A stretch of DNA of 64,000 nucleotides. Source: a virus. The notes below the pieces were generated by a model. The model saw only the letters and a list, made by a program, of their open reading frames with translations. It was not told the origin of the DNA and ran no database searches. Of the stretch, positions 11,281-63,824 are shown one piece after another. How positions within the stretch are numbered: position 1 is the stretch's first letter; every line of letters begins with the position of its first letter. Position numbers and translations under genes: made by a program. The stretch lies in the IMG/VR virus record IMGVR_UViG_3300037423_002564; one strand, 5' to 3'.

Positions 11281-13311
11281 CTATGTGGGGGATCCGCCCT
11301 GCCTGCGGGGCGGCTTCTGCTCGGGCATGTTCTTCTCGACCTTGCCGCCGCCCGGGGGCTGCTGCGCCTGGCCGCCGCCGCCCAGGCCCATGACGCTGTC
11401 GATGCCGAAGTTTCGCGCGAGGGTCGCGAGGATCAGGCCCTGCACCGGGCTGTTCCGGGCGACCTGCTCCATCGTGGACTGCTGGTCCTGCGGGCTCATG
11501 GCGAGCAGCATCTGGATCTGCTTGCCGTAGGTCGTCTTGTCGGTGGCCGCCCGCGCCGACAGCTCGCGCCCGATGTCGGGGTTGGCCGCCCCGATCTGCT
11601 GGACCGCCATGGCCTGCTGGTTGGGGTCCTGGATGGTCTGCAAGCCCTGGAAGACCTGGTCGACCATGTTCGGGTCCACCGCGGGCATCGTGTTGAGCAG
11701 CTCGGGCGCCAGCACGTTCTGCAAGAGGGCCTGGATGACCATCATCTCGTTCGCGGCCTGGGCCTGGGCCTTGGCGTCGGCCACGGCCTGGCTGATGTTC
11801 TCCTGCGTGCGCTTCTTGCGCTCCTGGGCGTAGTCGAACTCGAACCACTCGCCCAGCTTCTCGCCGGAGACGGCCTGCATCTGCCAGAGCTGCAAGATGA
11901 GCTGCTTGGCCTGCACGTCGTCCGCCATCTTGAACTTGCGCAGGTCGCAGTCCACGTACTCCATCTTCGTGATCTGGCTGATGCGCCGCGTGATCCACTT
12001 GAAGCACTTGATGACCTGCTCGACCTGGTTCATGAGCGTGTTTTCGAGCATCCGCAAGGAAACGGAGCTACCCGTGTAGGTCAAGCCGCCGCGCAGGAAC
12101 TCCTGCGGCACGTTCAGGCCGTTGATGATGTTGGTCTCGACCATCTCCATCTCGGCGAACAGCATCAGCGCCTTGCCGTCGCCGCCCATGCGGCCCTCGC
12201 CGACGGGCACGGGCGTGAGCATGATGTAGAGCGGGTCCCGCTTCCAGCGCGCCACCTCGGACTCCATCTGGGAGCGCCAGTCGGCCAGGTCCATCGGGAT
12301 CGTGGTGCCGCTGCCGACGTCGGTGGCCGGGTACAGGTAGCGGAAGGGGATGATGTGCTCCAAGAGCAGCGCGAGCTGCGCGCGCTTCATCATGTTGATG
12401 TAGAAGATCTCGCGCAGCACGCTCACCGTGATGGGCATGCCCCAGGGGTTCTCGACGCCCGGGCTCGACGCGCTGTGGCGCGTGAGGTGGAAGATGCTGC
12501 CGCGGGTCAGCTTGACCTTCGGGTTGTCCTCCTTGCGGTTGTTCTTGTGCTCGCGGACGGCCTCGATGACGACCCAGGGGGTCTTCTCCAGCATCAAGGG
12601 GTTGCCCTTCTTGATCTTCTCCGCCTGCTCGTCGGGCACGTTGTAGTAGTACTCCTTGGAGCCGGAGTACGGGTCGAACTCGATGTCGATGTTGCCGGGG
12701 TGGAAGCGGATCAGGTTGATGCGCGTCGGGTCGGCCACGGGCTTGTCCTTGACGCGCGCGTAGCCCTTGAACTGGCACTTCCAGCACTTGATCTTGAAGG
12801 CCAGGCGCCCGGAGTCCCACTCCCACTTCACCTTGGTCATGATGTGGTTCTCGCGGCAGTCCTCGTTGCCGCAGATCAGCACGCGGTCGAACGGCGCGTA
12901 CACGCTCGCGAAGGCGTTGCCGTACAGGTAGAAGTCCATCGACAGGCCCACGGCGAAGCCCTTGGCCTGGAGGTGGGTCTCGTAAATTTCCTCCCAGCGG
13001 TCGATCACGCTCTCACGCTGCTTGTAGGCGTCCTTGTACTCCTTGGAGTCCTCGGGCTCGCGGATGATCGGGCTGAAGGTGAACTCCGTGATGGGGTACT
13101 CCGACAGCTTCTCGATGGCGCTGTTCACCACCGGGTTGGTCAGGAAGGTCTGGTAGCTGAACCGGAACAGCTCCTTGGTGGTGCTGGGCAGGTAGAAGCT
13201 CTCGATGTGGAAGAAGGGGCTCTGGCGCAGCATCGTCTGCTGAAGCGCGGCCGAACCACCTCCGATCATCTGGAGGTCGCCCATCGTGTCGTCCCACGGG
13301 TGGTTGAACAT
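11281..13311 (-). CDS. Putative portal protein with Cys-rich (zinc-ribbon-like) segment
   Basis: NPVVNSAIEKLSEYP, MDFYLYGNAF, IFHL..PWGMP, IINGLNVPQEFL resemble portal motifs; CGNEDC...CWKC segment; Q-rich C-terminus. Confidence 0.7.
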   Translation of the reverse strand: MFNHPWDDTMGDLQMIGGGSAALQQTMLRQSPFFHIESFYLPSTTKELFRFSYQTFLTNPVVNSAIEKLSEYPITEFTFSPIIREPEDSKEYKDAYKQRESVIDRWEEIYETHLQAKGFAVGLSMDFYLYGNAFASVYAPFDRVLICGNEDCRENHIMTKVKWEWDSGRLAFKIKCWKCQFKGYARVKDKPVADPTRINLIRFHPGNIDIEFDPYSGSKEYYYNVPDEQAEKIKKGNPLMLEKTPWVVIEAVREHKNNRKEDNPKVKLTRGSIFHLTRHSASSPGVENPWGMPITVSVLREIFYINMMKRAQLALLLEHIIPFRYLYPATDVGSGTTIPMDLADWRSQMESEVARWKRDPLYIMLTPVPVGEGRMGGDGKALMLFAEMEMVETNIINGLNVPQEFLRGGLTYTGSSVSLRMLENTLMNQVEQVIKCFKWITRRISQITKMEYVDCDLRKFKMADDVQAKQLILQLWQMQAVSGEKLGEWFEFDYAQERKKRTQENISQAVADAKAQAQAANEMMVIQALLQNVLAPELLNTMPAVDPNMVDQVFQGLQTIQDPNQQAMAVQQIGAANPDIGRELSARAATDKTTYGKQIQMLLAMSPQDQQSTMEQVARNSPVQGLILATLARNFGIDSVMGLGGGGQAQQPPGGGKVEKNMPEQKPPRRQGGSPT

Positions 13312-40276: not shown

Positions 40277-40648
40277 GTGAGCCGCATGCGCGTAACCTGG
40301 CGCCACATCCTGCGCCTGGCCGAATACCAGACCATCCGGGGGGAGTTCAAGCCCAGGCCGGACCGCCAGTGCTGCGCCTGCGGCCACAAGTTCCCCTTGG
40401 AGGCCGAGGACACGGATGATCACTACTTCGTCGCCTTCGACACGGACGGCGGGCGGCAGTTGGGCGGCGTGTGGTGGTGCCGGCGCTGCTGGCAGACCCC
40501 CGGCAAGGTGCCCATCATCGTGCGCGAGGCCCTCGCCACGATCAACGTGGAGCAAGGGGAACTGTTCACGGTCCGCCACTTCGGCGTCCTTCTGGGCGTC
40601 TGGAACAACAACTGCGCGCCCATGGAGCAGGCCGTTGAATCCCCTTGA
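40277..40648 (+). CDS. Small CxxC..CxxC protein with TDGGR variant motif
   Basis: CCACG...AFDTDGGRQLGG..WCRRC. Confidence 0.65.
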   Translation: MSRMRVTWRHILRLAEYQTIRGEFKPRPDRQCCACGHKFPLEAEDTDDHYFVAFDTDGGRQLGGVWWCRRCWQTPGKVPIIVREALATINVEQGELFTVRHFGVLLGVWNNNCAPMEQAVESP

Positions 40649-40976
40649 TTGCCTGACCTGCGGCTACCGCATCTACGACCACGGCGACGTTCACCGGGAC
40701 GTCTACACCTACACCTTCTACGCCGACTCCGGCCGCCAGCTCCGAGAGGGAAGCCGATGCCACACCCACTGGATTCCACCCACCTTCCTGCCGGGCCTGC
40801 TCGCCAAGCTCACGCTCAACACCTGGAACGGCGAGATCCACCGGATCATCACGGGCTGGGCGCCAGAGCTGTGGAAGCAGGCGCCCGACTCACCTGGCGG
40901 GTTCTCCCGACCGCGGAAGAAACGTCGGAGTGGCACTGCACGTTCTGCTGGAAGGGTCTCAACGGCTACCCGCTAG
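40635..40976 (+). CDS. Small Cys/His protein with ADSGR motif
   Basis: TTG 40635; CLTCG...FYADSGRQLREG..CHTH. Confidence 0.6.
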   Translation: MNPLDCLTCGYRIYDHGDVHRDVYTYTFYADSGRQLREGSRCHTHWIPPTFLPGLLAKLTLNTWNGEIHRIITGWAPELWKQAPDSPGGFSRPRKKRRSGTARSAGRVSTATR

Positions 40977-41185
40977 TAGGCATCGCGGTCTACCAGTGGT
41001 GGGCCGACTCTGGACGGCGGCTGGGCGGCATCATGTGCTGCCAGACCTGCCAGCGCAACGGCGAGATGCCGGACTTCATCCACGTCAACCACGACCATCC
41101 CGGTCTCAAGCAGTTCTACGGCACCCAGGACGAGATCGAGCCCGTGCTCGGCATCGTCGCGTGGGGCCACCCCAGCCTCGCATAG
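40871..41185 (+). CDS. Small CxxC..CxxC protein with ADSGR motif (start uncertain)
   Basis: CTFC...WWADSGRRLGG..CCQTC. Confidence 0.6.
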   Translation: MEAGARLTWRVLPTAEETSEWHCTFCWKGLNGYPLVGIAVYQWWADSGRRLGGIMCCQTCQRNGEMPDFIHVNHDHPGLKQFYGTQDEIEPVLGIVAWGHPSLA

Positions 41186-41199
41186 AAAGGGACCACCCT

Positions 41200-42902
41200 A
41201 TGACCACCGAATCCTACGACCCCGCGGCGTACTTCGCCGGCGCGCCCGCCAGCAAGATGGTCGACTACCACGGCCGCGGCATGGACCTCTCCTGGCCGCC
41301 CGGCCTCGACCCGAAGCGGGTGCAGCCGGGTCTCTACCGCCGGCACGGCCGCATCAACCCGGGCCACACCTTCCGCGTCTACGGCCTGGTCTACAACATG
41401 ACCACGCCGCACGGCATGGGCGGGGACGCCTGGGGCATGGGCGCCAACCAGAGCGCGCCCAAGATCCTGGTCGAGGCCCTAAAACCGCGGCCGGACGACG
41501 AGCCGCAGTGGCAGATGTACGAGATCCCCCACTTCACCCAGGAGTTCCTCAAGGCCGACGCCAAGAGCGTCTCCGACCCCGGCATCCACTTCTTCGAGCG
41601 CATCGGAGACTAGCCCCATGAACCTCGCGGAGTTCAACGAGCGCTGGCTGCGGGACCCGGACTTCCCCCAGGCCGTTCAGCATATGAGCATGCCAGACCT
41701 GGCGCGTCTGGTGGATGAAGCATCGGCGGCGTTCAAGGGGCCCGACCCGTTGCGCGGTATGATGCCGCGGGAGTTGCTGTTCTACACATACATGCGGCGG
41801 CTGGAAGCGTGGCTGCTGGCCTTCGAGCCGCCCAAGGCCAACGGAAAGAAGAGGAAGGACGCCTGATGGGCAAGCTATCACCGGAAGATCGCGATCGCAT
41901 CGCCGAGCTGGAGGCCAAGGCCAAGGGCCAGGACGAGGTGGCGGAAGCCTACCGGCGCAAGGGCGACGACTACAACGCGGCCGACTCCGAGAAGGACGCG
42001 CGGAACCTGCGCGCGCACGCGGACTTCATCCGCAACGGCGGCCAGCCGCCGGCCGAGGACGACTTCGGCGAGTACAGCGACCTGCTGCGTGGCGGCAAGA
42101 CGCCATGAAGACCACCATCTGCTTCGGCTGCGCGCGCGTGGGCGAGCCCGCCACCCGCACCAAGATCGTGGGCCTGGCCTCGCCGCAGGAGACGCAGGAG
42201 CGCTACTGCCCCGCCTGCGGCCGGGACAACGACCTGGTGGACCTCGACCCGGAGAAGGACCCGCTCTCCTACGCCCAGGACGTGGTGAGGGACTTCGCCA
42301 CCGCCGTCGGCATCGGCGACCACTGGACCGGCCCCAACTTCCCCTCCGCCCAGGTCAAACACGACGTCGAGCAGGCCATCCTGCGGCTGTACGGCCTGGC
42401 CCCTACCGAAGGAGATTCCCCGCATGGATAAGGTGAACCGGGCGTTCTACGTGGGTAACAGCTACTGGAACGCCTCGCTGCAACAGTTCTGCGGCACCAA
42501 CACCGAGTTCTCCATCACCTACGCCGGCCGCGACGTGCGTGCGGGCATCGGCGAGGTGGTCGTCATCGCCCCGGCCAAGGACAACCCGGCGGCCCCCGCG
42601 ATCTTCGTCTTGGACAGCGGGACGGACGAGACCGTCAGCTTCACGCGCATCCGATGAGGATCCACAACCCGAAGACCGGCCAGTGGGTGGAGACCCGCTG
42701 CACCGGATGCCCGTGCCACTGGCACAGCGCCATCGTGATGGGCGACGGCCTGGACGACGGTTGCTGCCGTGAGTGCGGCTGCCCCCGCAGCGAAGCCGGC
42801 TGGGCCTACTACGTCAAGGAGCACCCCGACCGCGTCCGCGGCCACGAGCCGGAGCTAGGTGGCGACACGCCCCGGCCCGGCGACGCCCCGGCGCTTGAAT
42901 AG
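41200..42902 (+). other. Six small hypothetical genes: 41200-41613, 41618-41866, 41866-42108, 42105-42431, 42424-42657, 42654-42902
   Basis: Abutting or overlapping ORFs on one strand; two are Cys-rich. Confidence 0.6.
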
Positions 42903-43196: not shown

Positions 43197-44366
43197 TTGA
43201 GCATGGAGATACCGTCCACCCATTTCAATGGGCGGAGCCTGCACGAGCATGCCGAAAAGCACTGGATGCGAACCACGCCAGAGGTGGTCTTGGAATACAT
43301 CAAGACCCAATATCCCGTGATGCCCAACAAGGACATCTCAAAGGAGATTGAAAAAAGGTTTGGTCAAGTCATTCCAGAGCACGAAATTATGCGCGCTGGC
43401 AACAAGTTTGGGTTCACGAAGAAGAACAGGGGGCGCAAGCCTTCCGCCACCAAGCTGGAGTGGCCCGCGGAGGTCGACAACCTGCTGCGCAACTGGGCCG
43501 CGCAGGGGATCCCCCTGCGCGAGCAGCCGGCGCTCATGGATGCGCTCTTCCCGGGTCGCTACAACTACTACAACATCAACCAGCGGCGTAGCCTCTTGGG
43601 TCTCACCAGACGGTCCCCATGGGAGGGGCGCCCCACCGAGATCCTTGAGGACCGCTATGGCGTGTGGAGCACCCCGGCCATCGTGCGCGCCATTGAGCGC
43701 GAAACGGGCCAGAAGTTCACGCCGAAGGCCGCCCACGAGCGCGCCCTCAACCTGGGTCTAACCGCCAGCGACGCGCGCGGATGGTTCAACCTGAACGCCG
43801 CGTCGGTCGAGGTCCAGACCGACGTGCTCACCTTGGAGAGGTGCTGCAAGAAGCTCGGGGTTCCACTTCGCGGGCGCGGCACGTATCGATTCATCGACGA
43901 GCGCGGGATGGCGACGTTGCGCGGCGTCTTCCCCGACCTAGGGGAACCCGTGTTGACGGTGGACACGGCGGCGAAGGCACTGAGATGCACCGGGAAGGCG
44001 GTTCGCGCGCTAATCCTTGGTGGGCACCTTTCGGCCAGACGCTGGGGTCTCCACAACCAATGGCTGATCCCAGAGCGAGAGATTGCGCGCTACAAGAGCA
44101 AGCCAGGCTGGTTTCGTGACGATGTCCGCTGGACCATTTTCGGGCATCTACTTGACCATCATCTGTTCGCGGCGCGATCGCTAATGCCTGTGATCGACCG
44201 CCGGGATGGCGTAAGCCTGGTTCCGTCTCCGACGTGGGAGAAGACCCGCTACCGCAAGGGCGATCCAATAGGTCGAGTTATTGGGTTTTCAGCAGGCGTG
44301 CTTCATCTTGAGTCGCTGTACGGCCCGGTCGTGGTTTCCCTGGACGATACACAGCCAGAAAGTTAG
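43197..44366 (+). CDS. Multi-HTH DNA-binding protein with lower-GC codon usage
   Basis: Excisionase/MerR-like units FNLNAASVEVQTDVLTL and LTVDTAAKALRCTGKAVRALI..G.L.A; AAGGAGG-TTG start. Confidence 0.6.
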   Translation: MSMEIPSTHFNGRSLHEHAEKHWMRTTPEVVLEYIKTQYPVMPNKDISKEIEKRFGQVIPEHEIMRAGNKFGFTKKNRGRKPSATKLEWPAEVDNLLRNWAAQGIPLREQPALMDALFPGRYNYYNINQRRSLLGLTRRSPWEGRPTEILEDRYGVWSTPAIVRAIERETGQKFTPKAAHERALNLGLTASDARGWFNLNAASVEVQTDVLTLERCCKKLGVPLRGRGTYRFIDERGMATLRGVFPDLGEPVLTVDTAAKALRCTGKAVRALILGGHLSARRWGLHNQWLIPEREIARYKSKPGWFRDDVRWTIFGHLLDHHLFAARSLMPVIDRRDGVSLVPSPTWEKTRYRKGDPIGRVIGFSAGVLHLESLYGPVVVSLDDTQPES

Positions 44367-44373
44367 GCATCTC

Positions 44374-44544
44374 ATGTCAGAATGGTACGTGCTTATGACG
44401 GACAGCGGGAGGCCAGTTAGAGATATTCTGGCATTCTCTGTAATAAATGCGCTTCGCCAGGTTCCAGGCTACATGGTGGCAGAAAGAATGTTTCCGCTTA
44501 GGAGTAATATACCAATTGGGGATTATGAAGATGACGACGAATAG
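44374..44544 (+). CDS. 56-aa AT-rich hypothetical protein with TDSGR motif
   Basis: MSEWYVLMTDSGRPVRDIL. Confidence 0.5.
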   Translation: MSEWYVLMTDSGRPVRDILAFSVINALRQVPGYMVAERMFPLRSNIPIGDYEDDDE

Positions 44545-44917
44545 ATGTCAAAGAATCCCAACCGGCGAGAAGTGGGAGTTGGAGCGCACCAACCAGTGCA
44601 AAAACTGCCCGTGGAAGGTGAACTCCAACCCGTTCGAGATTCCAGGCTACGACCCCGTGATGCACGCCGGCCTGGCCGACACGATCGCAGACCCGGACAA
44701 CGTCGACCTGATGGCCCTCACGAAGCCCTTGCGCGCCATGAGTTGCCACGACGAGGAGGAAGCCTACTGCGTGGGCTGGCTCTACAACCAGCTCAACCAG
44801 GGCAACAACGTGGCCCTGCGCGTGCGCATGTCGCACTGCACCAACGCCAGCAAGCTCCGGGTCTTCGGCGAGCAGCATGAGACCTTCGAGGACACCATCC
44901 CCACGCGGAAGGAGTGA
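44526..44917 (+). CDS. Cys-rich hypothetical protein (DUF6283-like pattern; start uncertain)
   Basis: QCKNCPWK...MSCH...CVGWL.NQ...LR. Confidence 0.6.
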
Positions 44918-44924
44918 ACGCGCC

Positions 44925-47900
44925 ATGCGAGCGTACAAGACCAACATCAAGCAGTTCGAGGTCGTCGGCTTCCACGACCTCCCCAAGGTGGGCCAGGCCG
45001 TCCCCGTCCTGGTCGAGCGCTCGGACTACAAGGGCCACCAGGGCCAGGAGCAGTTCGAGCAGTACGGCCACGTTTTCCGCGTCGTCGCCGTGGATGCCGA
45101 TGCCATGACGGTCGAGCTGGAGCAGATGGAGACCAACCCGCTGATGAAGATGCAGCGCCCGCTGGTCCACGGCGAGCAGCGCAGCGCTTGGGGCAAGACC
45201 GAGTTCAACGTGCTGGAGCAGCGCCAGAAGGCGACCAGCACGGAGGAGCACTCTTGAGGCCCGAGGACGACGAGCCCACGGAGGCAGAGATCGAGGAGAT
45301 CCTGCGCGAGGGGCGCGAGAACCCGCTGCCCCTCGACGATGCCAAGCGCCTGCTGCGCAAGGTGGGCGAGCATCTGGGCATCCCGCCGGAGGAGGCCGAC
45401 CGCATCGCCGAAGAGCGCGAGCGTCTGGACCGCGGACATGACCAGTGATCAAGGGCTTATTTTATATATCGCCCGTCGCTCCGCCGACAAGAGCGGAGCC
45501 CCAACATTAAACGCCAAGGAACTTAAGTGGATTCTCGGCATCATTCTCGACCGACCAATTACTGACGAATGGCTGAAAGAGACAATGTCTGGAATGCTTA
45601 ATGAGTTAAGACAGTAATTCAGAGAACCATTCTTACCAGGAATTTCCCGCGAGCGGAGCCAGAAACCCGCATCGTTACGTGGAGGTAAACCACCTTGGAA
45701 AACATCACCATCAAGACCGTGGTCTTCCAACGCCCCGAGCGGGACGGCGGCACCACGGCGATCGCCCACTTCCACATGGTCGACGACACCCGCCCGCCCC
45801 TCGCGCGCCTCAAGGAGGCGCTGACGAAGTGGGTGGCGTTCACCAGCGCCGGGCGGGACGCCTGGAAGTCCAGCAGCGAGGACTTCAACATCGGCGACCT
45901 CCGCGATTGGTACGGCGACTCGATGCTGCACTACCTCAACGAGGAGGGCATCACGAGCATCGTGTTCGAGGCCGTGCGCGACAACAACGAAGTGGTCGCC
46001 TACGACGAGCGTCTGGTGAACGACGACGAGATCGACTTCAACGAGCCCGTCGGCATGGAGCAGGGGTAGATGGGGAAGACCGCCAAGGATCAGATGGAGG
46101 CCAACAAGGCGTTCGTCCGCAAGCACTTCCCCCTGGCCCGCTCCGTGGTCCAACACAACGGCGACTACGCTACCTACGAGATCCTCAACATGGGGACCAC
46201 GGGCAGCAGCGCCAACAGCACCACCGACGAAGCGACGGCCTGGTACTACGCGGCGCAGGCCGTGCAGCGGAAGCTCGACCGCGAGGCCAAGCTGAAAGAG
46301 GGCAGGTAGATGGCTTCAACCCTCACTGTCACGCCGGCGATGATAGATGCCCAGAGGGAGGACATCGCATGCCTCGAAAGGCAGCTCGCTCGGGCCAAAC
46401 AAGAACTCCGCGACATGCAGGAGGCATGCCGCAAAGGCGAACCCCTCCCCATCTAGGAACGCAGGAGGTACACAGGGTGACATTCAAGCGCTACGGAGGC
46501 TGCCCCCACTGCAACATGGGCCTTGAAGGTCGCAGCAAGTGGTGCAAGCACTGCCGGAAGTCGGTGAAGCCTACCCTGGCAACGCCAGCGTGGGACAGCC
46601 CGAACGACCATGCCGACGCACCCTACGATGTGCGAGAGCAGTTCTCGTGGTGGTTCTGGCTGACGGCCAGGTTGCGTTTCCGCAGGTAGGAGCATCATGT
46701 CGAAGAAAACCAAGAAGAGCGAGGGCGACAAGGAGTTCGTGCTGGCGCGCTTCCCGGGCGCCAAGGCCGCGCGCCGGAAAGTGTACGCCGGCACCAAGAC
46801 CTACGGCTGGGTCATCGAGGGGGTCGGCGGCCTGCCGATCGCCCCACAGCAGCGCGGCGAGGATGCCGCCTGGGCCGAAGCGGCCAAGGCCATCCGCAAC
46901 TACAGGGAGCAGTAGCCATGTGGCATCTCATCACCGTCGACGGCTACGTCGAGGGACCCTACAAGGGCAAGGGCGGCGTGGTGGCCGCCAAGGACGAGGC
47001 GATGAACCTCGCTCTGGATCCGCGCCGCCGCGAGTCGGCGTTCAAGACCCTGCGGGAGGGCGAGTACGAGCATACGGTCTACCGCGGCTACGAGGGCAAC
47101 CGCTGGCCCTGCTTCTACGTCGTGAGCAGCGACCGCCTGAAGGAATGGCCGGCGGCCTGGGCCCAGTACCAGGAGCGCATGAAGGGCCCGCCGCTGCCGA
47201 CCTATGGCCTGGTCAACAAGGACGGCCTGGACGTGCTCCAGGTGGGCGGCCTGCTGCCGAACGAGCCCGGTCAGCACGACGTCACCAACTGGCACGCCCT
47301 GGTGGACGCCGCCGGCATCCGCGCCTACTTCGGCGAGCCGGAGCTGGCCCGCTTCGTGAGCCATGTGCTCGATCCGGGCCTGTGGGGCGCGCTCACGGAC
47401 GACGACCGCCGGCTCTTGCAGGCGGCGCTTGACGGCTCCAAGTAAGATCATGATGGAGAAGGAGACCGGCATGGCCGACCAAGACGTTCAGGGCAACCCC
47501 TTCGAGGCCATGTTCAAGGCCGCCAAGGAAGACGGCGGGCGCACGCCGGTGAAGGAGCTGGCGCAGCGCTTTGACGTCACGCCGATGTACTTCGTCACGC
47601 AGGTCGGGCGCTACGCCCGCTCGCAGGGCCAGTCCATCCCCATGATGGACTGGAAGACGGAGTTCATCGCCCCGGACGACCGCCAGCCCGAGCAGTGCTT
47701 CCGCCGCGGCTACTGTCACGGCTACCAGCAGGCCGTCGAGGACTTCGAGGCCCTGCTGGCCCAGGCGTACCCCTACCGCGAGGCCAAGGTCGCGCGCATC
47801 GTCAGCACCCTGGGAACCTTCCTGTACGAGCGCCTGACGCAGTTCTGGCGCTACCACAAGACCCAGGAGTTCCCGGTGCCGGTGCCGCATCTGCTGGACG

Positions 47901-50119: not shown

Positions 50120-50502
50120 GCTGGGAGATCGTCCAGGAGCGCAACGGCACCGTCGACCTGAAGCGCATCCTCTACGACCGGCTCTCGGGCGAGGACACGG
50201 TCCACGCCACGGCCTGGATGGTTGGCAAGCTGGAGCTGCGCGGCCTGGCCGCCTACGCCTGCATGTTCGAGCACAAGTACTTCGACTCCGAGCGTCACAG
50301 CCAGGAGGGCGTGGGCGTGGTCATCATGATCGAGCCCCAGCCCCAAGAGGGCCGCTTCCACATCAAGGTGATGGACGAGCGGGAGGGGCCCCTGGCCTAC
50401 GACTGCCCGAAGGAGGTGCTGGACCTGCTGACCCCCACTGACGACCCGAAGGCGCTGGCCTGGCGTGCCCGCTGCAAGGAGCGTCTGGGATGCGCTACCT
50501 AA
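50116..50502 (+). CDS. Conserved phage hypothetical protein (DUF6927-like)
   Basis: KVMDEREGPLAYDCPKEVLDLLTPT....AWRARC. Confidence 0.6.
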   Translation: MSWEIVQERNGTVDLKRILYDRLSGEDTVHATAWMVGKLELRGLAAYACMFEHKYFDSERHSQEGVGVVIMIEPQPQEGRFHIKVMDEREGPLAYDCPKEVLDLLTPTDDPKALAWRARCKERLGCAT

Positions 50503-51170
50503 TCAAGGACCTGGCGGACCTGCTCGCGCTGGGCTTCATCGTGGAGCGCGACCCCGACGACACCTACGGCGCGGCCTATCCGCACGCCCAGCACTGGTGG
50601 GACATCGAGCGCAATCCGCGGGACGAAGGCGTGTTCGTCGACGTCCGCCTGGCCGACTCGCCCATCGAGTTCGGCGTCGCCATCGAGCCCTGCCGCAGCA
50701 TGTGGGCCGACCGCATGCGCGACTCCGGCAAGGGGCTCCAGCACGTCTCCTGCTACCGCGTGGAGGAGCGCCGGCAGTTCGTGGGCGCGTTGCCCGAGAC
50801 TTGGAGCGGCTTCAAGATCGAAGAGGCCAAGAACGGCGGCGTGGACATGTTCTGGACCCGGCCTACCGTCAACACGGACGGCCTGCTGACCATGCTCAAG
50901 TTCCGCCGGTGCTGGTCGTTCACGGAGATGAAGGTCTACCTGCCCAACGAGACCGGCGATGCCTGGCTCGTGCGCACCCACCACGCCGACGGCACGCTGG
51001 ACTACCGCTTCTGGGACCTGCGGGCGATCGCCAACCGCATCGTCGACTTCATGGAGGACCCCTTGGCGTGGGTGCAGATCGACCACCCGGATTCCCCCGA
51101 TAAGTTCGCAAAGGAGGTGGCGCATGCCCGAGATATTGGCGCCTTCAGCAAGATTCCAAGCCGACCTTGA
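50490..51170 (+). CDS. Hypothetical protein with DSGK variant motif
   Basis: RMRDSGKGL. Confidence 0.65.
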   Translation: MRYLIKDLADLLALGFIVERDPDDTYGAAYPHAQHWWDIERNPRDEGVFVDVRLADSPIEFGVAIEPCRSMWADRMRDSGKGLQHVSCYRVEERRQFVGALPETWSGFKIEEAKNGGVDMFWTRPTVNTDGLLTMLKFRRCWSFTEMKVYLPNETGDAWLVRTHHADGTLDYRFWDLRAIANRIVDFMEDPLAWVQIDHPDSPDKFAKEVAHARDIGAFSKIPSRP

Positions 51171-51873
51171 GCGCCTGACGGCCCAAGGCTGGAAGATCGA
51201 CTACCACGAGGGCTACCGCAAGTTCTACGACGCGGTGGACTTCATCGACCTGGCCGAGATCGAAGTGGGCCGGGCTTACATGAACGGGCCGCTGGACGAC
51301 GAGGTCGAGCTGGTGCGCATGGAGCTGGGCGATTACGGCATCATGCTGTGCAAGAAGAAGGCGTTCAGCCTGGACTGGCAGCCGCTCGTGGACTCCGGCA
51401 CGCGCGAGTTGGGCGAGTTGCAGGAGTGGGAGAACAAGAAGCCACCCGAGGCCGCCTGCGTCGCGTTCCGCAAGGTGCTGCGCGACATCGCGGAGTTCCA
51501 CCGCCGCGTCGGCAAGGCCACGCCCGACAAGCCCGATGGCCTGCTGGAGTCCCAGGTAGACGGCTACACCGGCTACTTCTCGTGGACCTGGGACATGGTG
51601 GACCAGCTCTACGTCTACGTCCACCTGCCGAAGGCCGGCTGGGAGCTGGAATACGAGGACCGCTGGTTCCACACCCTCACCGACCTCCAGGCCACGTTCT
51701 GGGAGATGATCGACAAGTACATGGGCCACGACGCGGAGTCCCGCGGCGAGGACGACGACGACCACGAGGGCGACCTGATCGACCGGAGCTGGGCGGCGAA
51801 GGTCCGGCCCACGGACCCGATCATCCGCCCTGCCACCCGGAAAGGGGTTCGAGAGCATGTCTACTTCGAGTAG
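51124..51873 (+). CDS. Hypothetical protein with DSGTR variant motif
   Basis: ATG after AAGGAGG; PLVDSGTRELG. Confidence 0.65.
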   Translation: MPEILAPSARFQADLERLTAQGWKIDYHEGYRKFYDAVDFIDLAEIEVGRAYMNGPLDDEVELVRMELGDYGIMLCKKKAFSLDWQPLVDSGTRELGELQEWENKKPPEAACVAFRKVLRDIAEFHRRVGKATPDKPDGLLESQVDGYTGYFSWTWDMVDQLYVYVHLPKAGWELEYEDRWFHTLTDLQATFWEMIDKYMGHDAESRGEDDDDHEGDLIDRSWAAKVRPTDPIIRPATRKGVREHVYFE

Positions 51874-52252
51874 TCCCTACAACACGCTGGGCGTGAAGCG
51901 CAACACGGAGCACCACCTGCGGTTGCTCGTGGGCCTGGCCGCGGACACCGGTCGCGTCTACTTCACCCGGCCACACAAGTGGCGCATCCGCATGTTCGTG
52001 GTCAACGAGAACCGCGAGCTGGTGGAGTTCGAGCCCACGGGCAACCCGATGAAGCTCACGGGCGGCTCCCAGGAGGAGCTGGACGTCCACCGCCGGCAGG
52101 AGGCGAAGCTGATGGGGTTCTGCCTCAAGAAAAGAGCCCTCTTGGCGGCCACTGTGGAGGCCGCCAATATGCCCGCGGCCACCTTCGGCTCCCTCTGCCG
52201 GGTCGCGGGGGTTCCCGTGCCCAAGGTAACATATCACAGGCTCGACGAGTAA
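51857..52252 (+). CDS. Hypothetical protein with ADTGR variant motif
   Basis: GLAADTGRVYF. Confidence 0.65.
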   Translation: MSTSSSPYNTLGVKRNTEHHLRLLVGLAADTGRVYFTRPHKWRIRMFVVNENRELVEFEPTGNPMKLTGGSQEELDVHRRQEAKLMGFCLKKRALLAATVEAANMPAATFGSLCRVAGVPVPKVTYHRLDE

Positions 52253-52620
52253 TGGGAGCGATCGCCTACACCCATGACGGGGACGTCTATTGCACGAGCT
52301 GCTGCGAGGCAGAAGAGGACAACCCGGAGCAGGGCGCCATCTTCCCCTGGAACGAGATCGACCACCGCGGGCTCTTCTGCGGCCAGTGCCGGCGGGCGAT
52401 CGTGGACCCCCAGAGCCCTCCGTTCGTTCGCCTATTCGTGGCCGATTCCGGCCGCGCCTTCCGCGAGGAGAAGTGCGGCCAGGGCTGGATCCCCTCCGGC
52501 ATCCCCGACCATGTTGCCGACGCCATCAACGATATGGACGATCACCACGTCATCGAGTTCCTGGACGATGACGGCCTCCTCAACCTGGCCGTCGGCACGG
52601 AGGTGCGCCGTGCCGGGTGA
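52252..52620 (+). CDS. CxxC..CxxC protein with ADSGR motif
   Basis: YCTSC...FCGQC...LFVADSGRAFRE. Confidence 0.65.
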   Translation: MGAIAYTHDGDVYCTSCCEAEEDNPEQGAIFPWNEIDHRGLFCGQCRRAIVDPQSPPFVRLFVADSGRAFREEKCGQGWIPSGIPDHVADAINDMDDHHVIEFLDDDGLLNLAVGTEVRRAG

Positions 52621-52963
52621 GGAGCGCATTCGCGAGCCAGACCCCCACCTCTTGGAGGGCTGGGAGGTCTACGTCGAGACCATCTTCTACAACGACTCGG
52701 GCCGCTTCATCGGCTCCAAGCACACCTGGTGGCCCGAGACGCCGGCGGAAGTGCTCTACGCCTTCATGGACAACCAGTATGTCGCCGACATCGCCCATGA
52801 ATGCCTACCTTACGGCATCTGCGCCGACATCTACGCCAGCAGGATCGAAGGGAGAATCTGCAAATGTCCGCTACCTGTGAGGCGCGCGCCGGGACCGCCC
52901 GGTACGTGCGCCTGTGGCGCCAATTACGGGTCTTCAACAAGTGCTACACCATCCAGGAACTAG
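52610..52963 (+). CDS. Cys-rich protein with NDSGR motif
   Basis: GTG after GGAGG; IFYNDSGRFIGS. Confidence 0.6.
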   Translation: MPGEERIREPDPHLLEGWEVYVETIFYNDSGRFIGSKHTWWPETPAEVLYAFMDNQYVADIAHECLPYGICADIYASRIEGRICKCPLPVRRAPGPPGTCACGANYGSSTSATPSRN

Positions 52964-53748
52964 ACGAGCGGGTGCGTGATGCGGTCTTCGAGAGGATGCG
53001 CAACGACCCGAACCAGTGGGACTACCACGACAGCGAGATGTGCAGCGAGGACGCCAAGCACACCCTGGAGCGGTTCGGTTACGAAAACCAGGAGGTGAGC
53101 TGGAGCGCCGGCTTCTGCCAGGGCGACTACTTCAACTTCGCCAGCGGCACCGTGCGCGACCAGTTCGTGATCCGCCGGGTGATGGGCAAGCGCGCGCGCC
53201 GGCTGGAGCGCTTCTTCGAGAAGCGTGGTCGTGACCTCTACCGTCTCATCGGCATCAGCGTGAACGCCGGCTACCGCGGCCTGGACCGGAACTCCCGCGA
53301 GATCGTCATCTCGCTGGACGAGCAAGACCTGGTGGTGGGCGGGACCTTCACCGCCCTGGCCGATTCCGGCCGCAAGCTGGAGGCCCACACGTTCACCACC
53401 TACAACCTGGGCAGCGGCCTGGCGCGCGAGCTTCAACACGAGGTAGAGGGGAACTGGAGCCGTTGGGGCGAGGATGGCGCGGACCCCGTCGTCCGCAAGG
53501 TGCGCGGGTTCTGGTACGTCGTGAAGCCCATCACGATGAACGAGTTCATGGAGAAGTTCGTCTCCGATCTGGAAGCGGCCGTCGAGGCGGACTGCGACCG
53601 CATCTGCCGGAACATCCTAAGCGACATCCACGACGAGATCATGTACAAGTCCAGCGACGAGTACCTCGCGGAGGAGTGCGAGGGCCGCGACCTCTGGTTC
53701 GACAAGGAAGGCGAAGAGGTAGACCTGCCCCATGGATACCCCCGGTAG
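52864..53748 (+). CDS. Hypothetical protein with ADSGR motif
   Basis: WSAGFCQGDY...ALADSGRKLE...YKSSDEYL.E. Confidence 0.65.
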   Translation: MSATCEARAGTARYVRLWRQLRVFNKCYTIQELDERVRDAVFERMRNDPNQWDYHDSEMCSEDAKHTLERFGYENQEVSWSAGFCQGDYFNFASGTVRDQFVIRRVMGKRARRLERFFEKRGRDLYRLIGISVNAGYRGLDRNSREIVISLDEQDLVVGGTFTALADSGRKLEAHTFTTYNLGSGLARELQHEVEGNWSRWGEDGADPVVRKVRGFWYVVKPITMNEFMEKFVSDLEAAVEADCDRICRNILSDIHDEIMYKSSDEYLAEECEGRDLWFDKEGEEVDLPHGYPR

Positions 53749-54070
53749 CGTCTGCCGGCAGTGCGGCCGGCACTACATCCAGTGGCTCCACGTCCGCTTC
53801 TTCGCCGACGTGGGCAACCGCGTACTGGGCTATGTGGCCGGCCCGGCCATCTGCTTTCCCCCGGCCGTCCAGAAGATGGCCTGGAGCGCCATCAGGAACA
53901 ACTGGGGCTTCACCAAGGTCCAGTTCCTGCCGGAAATGGCCGGCCGCCTGGTGCAGGTGAAGATCGGCAGCGCGATGGACCACTGCCTGCTCTGCACCCT
54001 CACCGACGATGGCATCTTTGCCAGGAGCTACCGCAGCATGAACGGACTTGGCGATGACGGCAACGGCTGA
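53732..54070 (+). CDS. CxxC protein with ADVGNR variant motif
   Basis: CRQCG...RFFADVGNRVLG...CLLC. Confidence 0.6.
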   Translation: MDTPGSVCRQCGRHYIQWLHVRFFADVGNRVLGYVAGPAICFPPAVQKMAWSAIRNNWGFTKVQFLPEMAGRLVQVKIGSAMDHCLLCTLTDDGIFARSYRSMNGLGDDGNG

Positions 54071-54398
54071 CGAATACGAGGCCGCGACCCAGCGGGACCC
54101 GCTCTCGCGCATCTGCTTCCACTGCGACCGGAAGTTCTCGCCCAGCTTGGATTACATCCGCGCCGCGGACAGCGGGCGTTCGCTCCACCAAGGCGGTGGC
54201 CCCGCCATCATCCTCACGCGCCACGAGCGCATGTTGCTCGGGCGCTTCTCCAAGTACAACACGGACGGCACGTCCAAGCTTCACAACGTCCCGCACAACC
54301 AGATGATTGATGGTTGCTGGTACTGGGGCGACATCCACCTCGAAAGCTGCTGCTCGACCTGGTGTCAGCGGAAGTGGTACGAGGAGAACCACGATTAG
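54048..54398 (+). CDS. CxxC protein with ADSGR motif
   Basis: CFHC...IRAADSGRSL...CCSTWC. Confidence 0.6.
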   Translation: MAMTATADEYEAATQRDPLSRICFHCDRKFSPSLDYIRAADSGRSLHQGGGPAIILTRHERMLLGRFSKYNTDGTSKLHNVPHNQMIDGCWYWGDIHLESCCSTWCQRKWYEENHD

Positions 54399-57836: not shown

Positions 57837-58193
57837 ATGAAAACGAAGAAGAAGAAAACCTACCCCAAGGTTCACATCACGGCGGCCGATCTGGCCGCCC
57901 TACCGGAGTACTCCGCCTCCTTGCCTACCGGCACCTATTTGGGCAAGCGCTGGAAGCGCGATTGCGGTCCCGACCGGGATTCCGGCCGCAAGACCTGGTT
58001 CATCGGGGAGTTCTACCCCATCGACATCCCCGGAGAGGTGGGCATCCGCTGGAGCGAGGTGTGGCTGGTGCCCGCCTACGGACCGACGGAGATCCACCCC
58101 AAGGAGGCCAAGACCTGCCTCTGCCACACCGAGCCCTACAAGTTCGGCGTCTGCCACGTATGCGCGGCCTGGCGCTGGAAGCACGAGCGATAG
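57837..58193 (+). CDS. Hypothetical protein with RDSGR motif
   Basis: LPEYSASLPTGTYLGKRWKR...DRDSGRKTWF. Confidence 0.65.
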   Translation: MKTKKKKTYPKVHITAADLAALPEYSASLPTGTYLGKRWKRDCGPDRDSGRKTWFIGEFYPIDIPGEVGIRWSEVWLVPAYGPTEIHPKEAKTCLCHTEPYKFGVCHVCAAWRWKHER

Positions 58194-58202
58194 CGAGGAC
58201 CC

Positions 58203-60484
58203 ATGCCCTTCAAGCCCATCGACCCGGTGGACTACACCAACAACCCGGCAGACCCGCGGCGGGAGAAGCTGGGGAACGCCGGCGCGGCGTTCGTCAACCG
58301 GCTGCTGGAGCGCGGCTGGAAGCCGATGGTCAACCCGCAGACCAAGCACAAGGATCGCATCGACATCCGCGACGAGCAGAACGTCACGGTGGCGATGCTC
58401 CACGACTACGACGACATCAACAGCCTGGCCGAGGCGCTCCAGCCGCCACCCAAGGAGTTCTTCCGCATCATGAGCGGCTTCCAGAAGGCGCTCGCGGACG
58501 GCTGGACGCTTGAGACCAAGGACGACAAGATGTTCGCCTGCCGACCGGCCTGGGCCAACTACAAGCTCCAGAACTACACCGACCTGGAGCTGTGGCTCCA
58601 CGACGCGGGCTACGCCCATGGGTGCTTCTAAGATGGGCATGTTTAGCTGGACTTGCCCCAAGTGCAAGCTGCCCGTACTCTCACCCATGGTGACGGGCGG
58701 CGACCCGCGCGCGGTGAAGCTCACGCGCGTGGTCTTCCTGCTGCCCGGCGGCAGCCTCATCCGTGGCGACTACGACGGCTATGGTGGCACCAACCAGCAC
58801 CCGATGCTGGTAGCCGACCTGCCCGTGGACAGCCAGGTCAAGGTGCAACACCAGGGCTGCTACACCGGCGAGAGCTACGCCGACGCGCCCGACAGCCCCG
58901 ACGAGCCCCGGCAGGGCTTCATGTACAGCGAGGAGGAGCTGGAGCGTATCTTCAGCGGCACCCCCATCCCCGACGACGAGCCGAGCCCCATGGACCGGGC
59001 GCTGGCCGACGTCCTTGCAGAAGGAGAGACCCGTTGAGTCAGAGTTTCGAGCTGATCAAGGAGCTGCTCGCGAGCGATCGCGGCCCCGAGGCGATGGAAG
59101 AGATCGTCGAGAAGGCGCGCGCGCTGGTCGCCGCGGCCGAGATCGAGGAGGAGGACGAACGGCTGGACCAGCTCGTCGCCAACTTCGAGGGCAACATCGC
59201 CGACCTGGAGAGCGTCACCAACCGCCTCGACAACCTCACGGGCGACGGCCTGGCCGGCCCCTGGGTGCCCGGCTGGCTGGAGAGCCTGGGTGTGGAACTC
59301 GACGAGGTCGAGGACATGAAGTCCACCGCCTACGACCTGCACGAGAAGATGGAGACCTGGCGCGACCAGATGCAGGAGCTGCGCGCGGGCGTCAAGGGAC
59401 GCCGCACGGTGCTCGCGGCCTACCCCGGCGCGAAGATCGTGCAGCCCAACCTGATGCTGCCGCACTTCGTGGCGGAGATCGACGGCGAGGAGGTCGAGGA
59501 TGCCGTCGGCACCACGGAATGGGAGGTCTGGGAGGTGCTGGCCGACCTGCACAAGGAGGGCAAGCTTTTCCCGGTCGCGAGCGGCCAGGTGGACCACTCG
59601 CGGCTGTCCACCAACCAGACCAACTACTGCGAGGACTAGGCCATGGACCCCAAGGCCAACCTCGACGAGCAACTCGCCCTCGCCAAGCGCGTCCAAGAGA
59701 TCGCGGGCAGCCAGCCAGCCTACATCGAGCTAAACGAGGAACTGTCCGCCGAAGTGCGAGAATCGGCGTCTCGCCTCTCCGAACTGGTTCTCGCGCTGCA
59801 CGAGTGGCGCGAGAAGGGCGGATTCGACCCCTACCAGACCGCGCCGACGATGGACCTTGAAGCCCGTAACCCGTGGGGTATCTACCTGACCAACATCGAC
59901 ACGGAGCTGGGCTACCAGCGCCTGACCGACGAGCAGGTCCGCAATCTGCGGACGGAGCACCCGCGGGCGGAGATCTTCCACATGAAGACCAAGGACCTGT
60001 ACGTCTTGGAGCCGGACGACTGGAAGGACATGGGGTTCAAGGAGAACCCGCTGCCCAAGCGGGCCTTACCCTAGAAGCGAAAGCGAAAGGAAAGCGAAAG
60101 CCCATGAGCTACAAGCGCATGCTCGCGGTGATGGTCGTGGAGGCCGGCAAGGAGCCGGAGCTGCGCGAGGTGGAGATCGAGCCCCAGTTGGACTCCTGGG
60201 ACGCCCTCAAGAACGTCTACGCCATCACCGGGGACGAGGGCAACACGGAGTACTTCTCCCTCCCGCCCGCCTACCCGGACGGCTACAAGCTGTTGTCGGC
60301 GTGGGACTGGCGGGACCTCCGCTTCAACCGCCTCATCAATGCCGAGCCCTACTTCGGCACCGTGGTCATCGTGGCCCAGTGCCGGCTGGGCTCGCAGTGG
60401 GGCGCGCGCAGCATCATCGACGAGGAGTTCGAGTTCCTATGCCAGTGGCTGACCATGAGCAACCCGCGGTGCTTGACGGCGTGA
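58203..60484 (+). other. Hypothetical genes: 58203-58631, 58633-59037, 59034-59639, 59643-60074, 60104-60484
   Basis: Abutting + strand ORFs with phage-like codon usage. Confidence 0.6.
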
Positions 60485-60972
60485 ACGAGCCCACGGTCTT
60501 CCGCGGCCCGCGGATGGAGGACTTCCCCGACACGCCCGAAGGGTCGGACGCCTACGGCAACGCGTACTGGAAGGCGCGCTGGGACTTCATTCACGCCGGC
60601 CACTCCGAGCGCTTCGAGGAGCACTGCCTGGCCGAGGAGGACGGCACCACCTACGAGTTCCAGGTGGAGCAGCGCACCCAGAGCGGCACCACCGCTTCCG
60701 ACCTGCCGGTCTACGACGACGTGGACCAGGCGATCGCCTACCTCGAAGCGGCGCCGTTCGCCGGCATGGTCCAGCGCTACGTCAAGGGCGCCAATTGGCT
60801 CACGGCCGGCATCGCCTACGAGAAGCACCGCGGCATCAAGGACCTGTGGCTCGCGCGCAACGAGATGCCCGACATGCCCCACTGGCACGGCGAGCGCCAG
60901 TGCGACAGCGGGCGCTACTTCTTCGTGCGCTGCGAGCTGTGTAAAGACCGAGCCGACACCCGGACCCCGTAG
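60481..60972 (+). CDS. Hypothetical protein with CDSGR motif
   Basis: GTG overlaps the upstream stop; HWH..RQCDSGRYFFVRCELC. Confidence 0.65.
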   Translation: MNEPTVFRGPRMEDFPDTPEGSDAYGNAYWKARWDFIHAGHSERFEEHCLAEEDGTTYEFQVEQRTQSGTTASDLPVYDDVDQAIAYLEAAPFAGMVQRYVKGANWLTAGIAYEKHRGIKDLWLARNEMPDMPHWHGERQCDSGRYFFVRCELCKDRADTRTP

Positions 60973-63341: not shown

Positions 63342-63824
63342 GTGTCCACCACCATCCCCCTGCCCACCCTGGCCTGCGACAACCCCGTCACGCTCAAGAA
63401 GCGCGAGTCGGACATCATGAACGCCCTGGTGGACCACCTCAACGACCTCTTGGGCGACGCGAAGAAGCGCACCCACGTCTACCGCTTCTCCACCAGCGAC
63501 CGCAAGGGCTTCGGCCTCTTCGTGGTCGACAGCAAGGGCGAGCTGAAGCGCATCGACCCACCCTTCAACCCCCGCGACCTGGACTACGACAGCATCCCCG
63601 AGAATGCCCACGACCGCAAGGCCGAGGTCCAGGCCCTGATGGACGACGACCGCGCCTACGCCGCGGCGTTGATGGGCTTCGACCAGCGCATCGGCGGCTG
63701 GCCCTGGCCCGAGAACACGATGTCCGGCGAGGGCCTCGAAGTCCTCAAGCACCTCTGCTTCCTGTGCGGCTGGGACGGGGAGGACACCAGCTCTATCGGC
63801 GTCGTCAGCTTCCCCGTCCACTAG
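63342..63824 (+). CDS. Hypothetical protein
   Basis: GTG after AAGGAG. Confidence 0.6.
   Translation: MSTTIPLPTLACDNPVTLKKRESDIMNALVDHLNDLLGDAKKRTHVYRFSTSDRKGFGLFVVDSKGELKRIDPPFNPRDLDYDSIPENAHDRKAEVQALMDDDRAYAAALMGFDQRIGGWPWPENTMSGEGLEVLKHLCFLCGWDGEDTSSIGVVSFPVH

Follow-up and report, generated by a model that had tools for sequence, protein, structure and literature searches.

A DSGR turn in a predicted zinc-finger domain shared by neighbouring genes of a large uncultured phage

Expansions of small zinc-binding domains are already known in very large phages, as exemplified by Bacillus phage G, where a zinc ribbon has expanded to ~35 copies (PMC7824862). Here we analyse a stretch of 64,000 nucleotides (hereafter, the window) of the IMG/VR virus record IMGVR_UViG_3300037423_002564, corresponding to bases 114,867-178,866 of a 203,733-bp sequence with direct terminal repeats and 67.6% G+C, in which neighbouring small genes at 52252-54398 encode proteins carrying the tetrapeptide DSGR (genes are named by their first base in the window). 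The ribbons of phage G and the DSGR proteins are alike in that a very large phage carries dozens of diverged copies of one small, in our case putative, zinc-binding domain. The likeness is one of description: phage G belongs to another phage group, and no invariant tetrapeptide outside the metal ligands has been reported for its expansion. No paper combining DSGR, zinc and phage was found in the literature collection searched.

The second group of described systems relevant to this locus comprises the ribosomal protein eL24 (L24e), zf-FCS/MYM fingers, the gyrase inhibitor YacG (DUF329) and DUF2256, all of which are placed in the Pfam TRASH clan (PMC4047054). Fingers of zf-FCS and eL24 can bind nucleic acid, and the zf-FCS signature is CX2CX14-30FCSX2C (PMC4047054), while YacG is a treble-clef FCS finger working by protein binding (PMC4083091). 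The DSGR proteins resemble TRASH-clan fingers in the pattern of ligands, namely C-x2-C, a beta-hairpin (putative in the DSGR proteins) and [F/Y]-C-S-x2-C where a helix begins, and in the aromatic-x-Pro that follows the first knuckle.

A preliminary description had listed eight consecutive overlapping genes (50490-54398) with one DSGR-type motif each, and had read the motif as one constant tag on otherwise variable proteins. All eight strings are present, in one copy per open reading frame (ORF), and the flanking genes 50116 and 54408 are devoid of the motif. The run supported by our analysis consists of five genes (52252-54398) and not of eight, and the notion of a tag is replaced by another one: in at least three of the five, DSGR would be, judging from sequence comparison, a turn integral to a small zinc-finger domain that diverges fast; the spacing between the first knuckle and the motif is fixed, and the motif aligns with a hairpin turn of the eL24 type. 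When neighbouring genes share a short motif, it can be the final remnant of shared descent still to be seen, and not an added tag.

The DSGR domain, its members and their clustering

Exact DSGR was found in 25 proteins of the genome, compared with 0.88 expected from composition (Poisson p = 1e-27), which makes it the most over-represented tetrapeptide of the proteome, always in a single copy per protein; these and other genome-wide counts are based on the 295 genes predicted with our own gene caller over the whole genome. The carriers formed 13 adjacent pairs, a number reached in none of 100,000 permutations of gene order. Within the + strand block of the window, motif carriers, counted here together with the variants DGGR and DVGN supported by hidden Markov models (HMMs), accounted for 11 of 68 genes, with six adjacent pairs and a longest run of five (p = 0.0007 and 0.0025, respectively). 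The 25 DSGR sites were encoded by 14 distinct 12-mers, with 12 AGC and 13 TCN codons for Ser, and their flanking DNA was unrelated (on average, 20 of 60 bases identical), therefore selection acts at the protein level. A DNA-level repeat was ruled out on the same grounds.

The context common to most carriers is CxxC-[GRK]-x2-[YF]-x-P-x8-(A)DSGR. Proteins of the family are small, with 60-150 amino acids (aa). Their domain opens with a CxxC knuckle, from which 14-18 residues of predicted beta-strand lead to (A)DSGR, an almost invariant putative turn, and a second ligand pair follows. In the short type (52252, 53732) the second pair stands close behind DSGR; in the long type (54054) a variable insert of ~55 residues precedes [FYA]-C-[SGN]-x-x-C, with which a helix begins. 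The CxxC located 14-18 residues upstream of D-[SVG]-G-[RN] is present in 52252 (18 residues), 53732 (14) and 54054 (14); it is missing in 50490, 51124 (with a lone Cys 13 residues upstream), 51857, 52610 and 52864, and none of these five proteins was matched by the family HMM.

The core HMM iterated within the genome retrieved 17 proteins at E <= 3e-10 and zero shuffled decoys, and at least 17 proteins have a recognisable domain in which the spacing between CxxC knuckle and motif is fixed. Independent HMMs were built solely from the genome array at 37.4-44.4 kb, which is not part of the window. The independent core HMM matched 54054 (E = 3.5e-6) and 53732 (E = 2e-4), with 52252 reached only after iteration, and the full-length leave-out HMM, made of seven proteins of that array, matched 54054 over residues 13-111 (E = 3.6e-7). 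The members found in the window are as follows, E values being those of the iterated HMM for the first three and motif positions giving the first base of the Asp codon.

52252-52620, + strand: family member of the short type, 122 aa; FCGQC, 18 residues, ADSGR (DSGR at 52444), further Cys; an extra CxxC near the N-terminus; E = 3.7e-17
53732-54070, + strand: family member, 112 aa; CRQC, 14 residues, DVGN at the motif position (DVGN(R) at 53807); E = 2.5e-11
54054-54398, + strand: family member of the long type, 114 aa; CFHC, 14 residues, DSGR (at 54168), insert of ~55 residues, CCSTWC, helix; E = 9.7e-15
40286-40648, + strand: family member of the short type, 120 aa; DGGR, second knuckle WWCRRC; HMM E = 4e-16; JGI call identical
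40635-40976, + strand: family member, 113 aa; CLTC, ADSGR, C-H-x-H; HMM E = 1.8e-15, independent HMM E = 5.5e-4
40871-41185, + strand: family member, 104 aa; CTFC, WWADSGR, MCCQTC; HMM E = 1.9e-16

These six proteins are mutually only 14-30% identical. BLASTP linked 54054 to two members of array 1 (E = 1.7e-4 and 5e-4) and 40635 to 40286 (E = 1.9e-4). The second run proposed earlier is a real one, located at 40286-41185, its three HMM members carrying DGGR, DSGR and DSGR. Duplication followed by extreme divergence, which had been suggested for the entire set alongside recruitment of unrelated genes, is backed by HMM matches, shared CxxC/(A)DSGR and the low identities for these three genes and for 52252, 53732 and 54054; 52610 and 52864 are without detectable homology. 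On sequence grounds, 52252-54398 appears as the third cluster of a lineage-specific family, the other two being 40286-41185 and the genome array at 37.4-44.4 kb. The latter belongs to the same family, as its HMM matched 54054; the cluster at 52252-54398 is smaller by comparison and is mixed with larger proteins (52864, 294 aa) and with motif carriers lacking Cys. Altogether, the phage has ~25 copies of the domain.

Among eight paralogs of the long type, C21, C24, D39, R42, C100 and C104 are invariant. The last two, a C-x3-C located ~55-60 residues past DSGR and followed by a helix, are also invariant in the two orthologs of 54054. Zinc binding by the family proteins is predicted from the four invariant Cys. 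Moreover, D, G and R of the motif are conserved as strongly as the zinc ligands, so that a turn outside the ligand set is kept as strictly as the ligands themselves while the rest of the protein diverges.

An eighth long-type member was noted at genome positions 41803-42258 (L002:5803-6255), with all four Cys kept and DTFR replacing DSGR; motif and ligands can therefore decay independently.

The two remaining genes of the five-gene run carry exact DSGR between strand-like hydrophobic stretches, in the absence of the upstream knuckle:

52610-52963, + strand: DSGR ORF, 117 aa; YVETIFYN-DSGR-FIGSKHTWW (DSGR at 52694), a strand-turn-strand context; Cys cluster downstream, no upstream CxxC
52864-53748, + strand: DSGR protein, 294 aa; DSGR at residue 167 (at 53362), TFTALA-DSGR-KLEAHTF, a hairpin-like context with no nearby Cys

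Residues 28-120 of 52864 match phrog_5162 (PHROG E = 7.4e-13), a widespread phage family of no known function. The chance of DSGR is 0.0017 in 52610 and 0.011 in 52864, or ~2e-5 jointly as the product of the per-gene values. The motif in both proteins is regarded as real because of this low chance and of their placement between family members. In the simplest reading, 52610 and 52864 would be degenerate zinc-less derivatives of the family, or else they may be unrelated genes that acquired the motif independently; a position-specific scoring matrix of motif flanks gave nothing significant for the Cys-less carriers.

Comparison with known fingers, and the relatives of the family

The AlphaFold2 model of 54054, made from 14 sequences, had a mean predicted local distance difference test (pLDDT) score of 52.9 and was confident only at residues 20-37, forming a knuckle and a strand, and 90-114, forming the C-terminal strand, knuckle and helix (helix 102-112, pLDDT 72-81). 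Because of the low pLDDT of the models, DSGR is placed at the tip of the hairpin by inference and not by confident modelling. Against PDB representatives, this model retrieved a single chain at Z >= 2, the gyrase inhibitor YacG (Z 2.2, root-mean-square deviation 2.4 A, 38 residues); Foldseek against PDB with the same model returned no match. The long-type profile searched against PDB sequences ranked archaeal eL24 first, with a sub-threshold E = 0.48-0.72. In this alignment NDGR of eL24 stands opposite DSGR of the family and CxxC opposite CxxC, with the same spacing of 14 residues after the knuckle, and the C-terminal half of the profile separately matched the FCS knuckle of eL24 (E ~4.7). Furthermore, the Atlas gave zf-FCS (cosine score 0.84) and DUF2256 (template modelling (TM) score 0.37/0.60) as weak leads. 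The four weak pointers, to eL24, zf-FCS, YacG and DUF2256, agree with one another, none of them being significant.

Differences from the clan are also evident. With ~75 residues between the ligand pairs as opposed to 14-30, and with CX2C ... [FYA]C[SGN]X2C, the long type falls outside the zf-FCS signature; short types lack the FCS triplet, their second site being C-x2-C or one Cys/His only, and, unlike TRASH-clan fingers, some DSGR proteins contain no Cys whatsoever. The Pfam models zf-FCS (PF06467), Ribosomal_L24e (PF01246) and YacG (PF03884) matched neither 18 members (E <= 10) nor the six-frame translated genome (E <= 1). Taken together, the domain resembles a TRASH-clan finger into which a variable region has been inserted, and probably functions as such fingers do; we do not file it as a member of the clan. 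An inactive HNH nuclease was considered and rejected, as there are no conserved His or Asn, the invariant residues being only the four Cys, Asp and Arg, and no HNH Pfam match; HNH clusters in the Atlas were only weak structural neighbours (TM 0.31-0.34).

The family appears, from sequence searches, to be restricted to a single uncultured phage lineage. When 1.84 billion representative proteins were searched with a profile, the sole matches were the phage's own proteins (clusters 90-100% identical) and noise from eukaryotic C2H2 repeats; locus scans, from which near-identical records may have been excluded, found no relatives in viral contigs (three queries) or metagenome contigs, and nucleotide and tblastn searches of 50,697 GenBank phages with the region, 54054 and 52864 found nothing similar at the DNA or protein level. 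The word-indexed profile search added two orthologs of 54054, P0037 (82% identity) and P0038 (50%), both of which keep CxxC, DSGR, GCWYWGD and CSTWC, with all four Cys retained. Between 54054 and P0037, 16 of 21 substitutions fall within residues 56-81, a block of 26 residues of the insert, and neighbouring genes listed with the same longest contig of 4488 bp as P0037 are 91-99% identical. The insert varies even among near-identical phages, and the block could represent diversification at this site, a patch introduced by recombination or two frameshifts that compensate each other. For an arms-race array directed at one target, as proposed in the preliminary description, this concentration of changes is the single hint. 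P0013, a relative of 52252 (91% identity), keeps the Cys and DSGR although residues within CxxC differ. Homolog searches with 52864 and 51124 found only relatives at 92-96% identity; P0001, a relative of 52864 (92%), retains DSGR, and the Atlas search with 52864 returned unnamed viral clusters only.

Beyond the expansions already described, the present analysis assigns each of the eight genes, recognises a split long-type architecture in 54054, aligns the motif with eL24, brings out the hypervariable insert and gives a negative result for the three loose variants of the motif, considered below.

Explanations of the shared motif

We favour, with somewhat better than even confidence, a lineage-specific zinc-finger family in which DSGR is inherited within the domain and the copies have been diversified as binder modules. 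Tandem duplication with deep divergence would pass DSGR on as a part of the domain, in place of its attachment to unrelated proteins. The zinc site and the DSGR hairpin would constitute the constant scaffold, similar to treble clefs of the TRASH/FCS/eL24 kind, while inserts and tails would serve as variable, target-specifying surfaces. The family would then be a panel of small proteins that bind other proteins or nucleic acids, with the hairpin tip possibly acting as a shared contact point as well. If a binder panel on a constant scaffold were true, it would illustrate the way in which host-takeover or regulatory functions are diversified by an uncultured jumbo phage from soil, and might offer a small natural scaffold for engineered binders.

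Several results weigh against this explanation. The structural models are weak, with mean pLDDT of 52.9 for 54054 and 38 for 52252, and every likeness to a known finger family is sub-threshold, the Pfam models of the clan being empty in the genome. With the motif masked, HMMs find nothing at E <= 1, the signal being almost wholly that of the Cys residues and the motif; motif-masked Smith-Waterman alignments of 52610 and 52864 with the family are not significant (p = 0.23 and 0.10, respectively).

With the same family assignment, another function is conceivable, namely that the proteins are sequence-specific transcription factors or structural DNA/RNA-binding proteins serving the programme of the phage's own RNA polymerase; on balance we regard this as unlikely. 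Such a role was suggested by Iyer et al. 2021 for the analogous expansion in phage G (PMC7824862), it accords with the nucleic-acid binding of which zf-FCS and eL24 fingers are capable (PMC4047054), and several members are basic, with isoelectric points (pI) of 8.9-9.9. Other members are strongly acidic, such as 52252 (pI 4.4, net charge -14) and 40871 (pI 5.6), and this mixed charge, with pI from 4.4 to 9.9 across the family, argues against a uniform nucleic-acid-binding role. Likewise, no helix-turn-helix or other DNA-binding domain is attached to these proteins, and the known operator motif of the genome does not occur inside the region.

The retention of DSGR by proteins without Cys keeps in play, with distinctly low probability, a docking epitope in the DSGR hairpin, through which ~25 proteins would plug into one hub whether the zinc site is kept or not. 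Candidates for the hub are the RNA polymerase of the phage itself and a single machine of the host, to which the variable inserts would bring different activities or targets; if true, the phage would thereby encode a system of adaptors based on a degenerate zinc finger.

We give similarly little credence to the original idea of a tag, taken here as a recognition signal that proteins of different origin would have acquired independently and that one factor of the phage or host (protease, modifying enzyme or docking hub) would read. It would accommodate the exact DSGR of ~7 proteins without nearby Cys (52610, 52864, 57837 and others outside the window), when ~0.85 are expected in non-family residues, as well as the constant single copy per protein, the conservation of D, G and R at the level of the zinc ligands and the loss of any similarity once the motif is masked. 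It fits poorly with the occurrence of the motif in at least 17 proteins at a fixed distance from CxxC in a recognisable domain, with the alignment of DSGR to a structural hairpin turn of eL24, and with the motif position along the carriers, which ranges from the N-terminus to the very C-terminus; no candidate enzyme was found either. It is also weakened by the ability of zinc fingers to lose their ligands while the fold persists.

Coincidence, arising from a loosely defined motif and from the high G+C and the abundance of Asp, Gly and Arg in this genome, is hardly credible for the eight-gene run as a whole: it draws on the marginal clustering within the window block when exact DSGR alone is counted (p = 0.07) and on the behaviour of loose variants, which are not enriched (13 genes vs 9.9 expected) or, in the case of DTGR of 51857, not conserved in a paralog, and is opposed by the Poisson p = 1e-27 of exact DSGR, by five consecutive genes with DSGR or homologous DVGN (run p = 0.0025) and by the joint chance of ~2e-5 for 52610 and 52864; it accounts for the first three genes at most and is refuted for 52252-54398.

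Neighbouring genes, reading frames and other carriers

The three upstream genes assigned to the run in the preliminary description have loose variants of the motif (positions again as the first base of the Asp codon):

50490-51170, + strand: neighbour with DSGK (at 50721), 226 aa; no HMM match, masked alignment p = 0.75, no hydrophobic strand before the motif
51124-51873, + strand: neighbour with DSGT (at 51391), 249 aa; no HMM match, masked alignment p = 0.44
51857-52252, + strand: neighbour with DTGR (at 51944), 131 aa; paralog at 63342-63824 without DTGR

The variants D[STV]G[RKTN] other than DSGR were found genome-wide in 13 genes, with 9.9 +/- 2.8 expected, that is, with no enrichment. 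In 51124, LCKKKAFSLDWQPLV-DSGT loosely resembles CDRKFSPSLDYIRAA-DSGR of 54054, with the lead-in C-KKK-AFSLDW..., and nothing was significant. The paralog of 51857, located 11 kb apart (BLASTP E = 3.5e-4, 30% identity over 107 residues), has KKRT in place of DTGR. Relatives of the three proteins are all at least 96% identical (51124 having a sole relative, at 96%) and hence uninformative. DSGK, DSGT and DTGR are thus probably coincidental, and these genes probably stand outside the family.

Reading frames of all eight ORFs (50490-54398) look coding, as had been assumed, with G+C content at third codon positions (GC3) of 0.85-0.92. The JGI/IMG gene calls are letter-identical for six of the eight (50490, 51124, 51857, 52252, 53732 and 54054) and for 54408; those for 52610 and 52864 gave no match under any start tried. 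In the frame of 52610, GC3 is 0.87-1.0 from 52620 to ~52840, after which the coding signal passes to the frame of 52864. Searches of the eight proteins against Pfam, PHROGs, NCBIfam and PADLOC returned nothing except the above phrog_5162 on the N-terminal part of 52864.

The ORFs belong to a block of small genes, all on the + strand without interruption from 49.6 to 56 kb of the window, in which neighbours overlap by 1-100 nt and promoter-like or terminator-like sites are not in excess over shuffled sequence. The DSGR proteins would be produced from tightly coupled operons. Genes for a Rad52-like recombinase and a zincin/vWA protein are located near the block, and 50116-50502 matches phrog_21047 (E = 1.7e-8), a phage family without known function.

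In two pairs, 52610-52963 / 52864-53748 and 40635-40976 / 40871-41185, a DSGR ORF overruns the next DSGR gene by ~100 nt. The GC3 frame switch near 52860 occurs well ahead of the stop codon of 52610 (at 52963), and the tails that overlap do not look like protein. These overlaps may be due to a stop that comes late, to a wrongly assigned start or to a -1 frameshift fusing both genes.

Other carriers were noted in the window outside the two runs:

57837-58193, + strand: protein of 118 aa with a single exact DSGR and no HMM match
60469-60972, + strand: protein of 167 aa with DSGR between H-x-H...C and CxxC (HWHGERQC-DSGR-YFFVRCELC) and no HMM match
11281-13311, - strand: protein of 676 aa without Pfam match, with DSGR between C/H residues and CxxC (DCRENH...WEWDSGRLAFKIKCWKC)
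44374-44544: doubtful ORF of 56 aa with DSGR and GC3 of 0.55, within a patch of lower G+C at 44000-46000 (0.60 vs ~0.66)

The large protein at 11281-13311 may likewise contain the hairpin finger. Genome-wide, CPAC came second among the over-represented tetrapeptides, with seven scattered small Cys-knuckle proteins against 0.05 expected, and this excess therefore suggests many more zinc-knuckle mini-proteins beyond the DSGR family.

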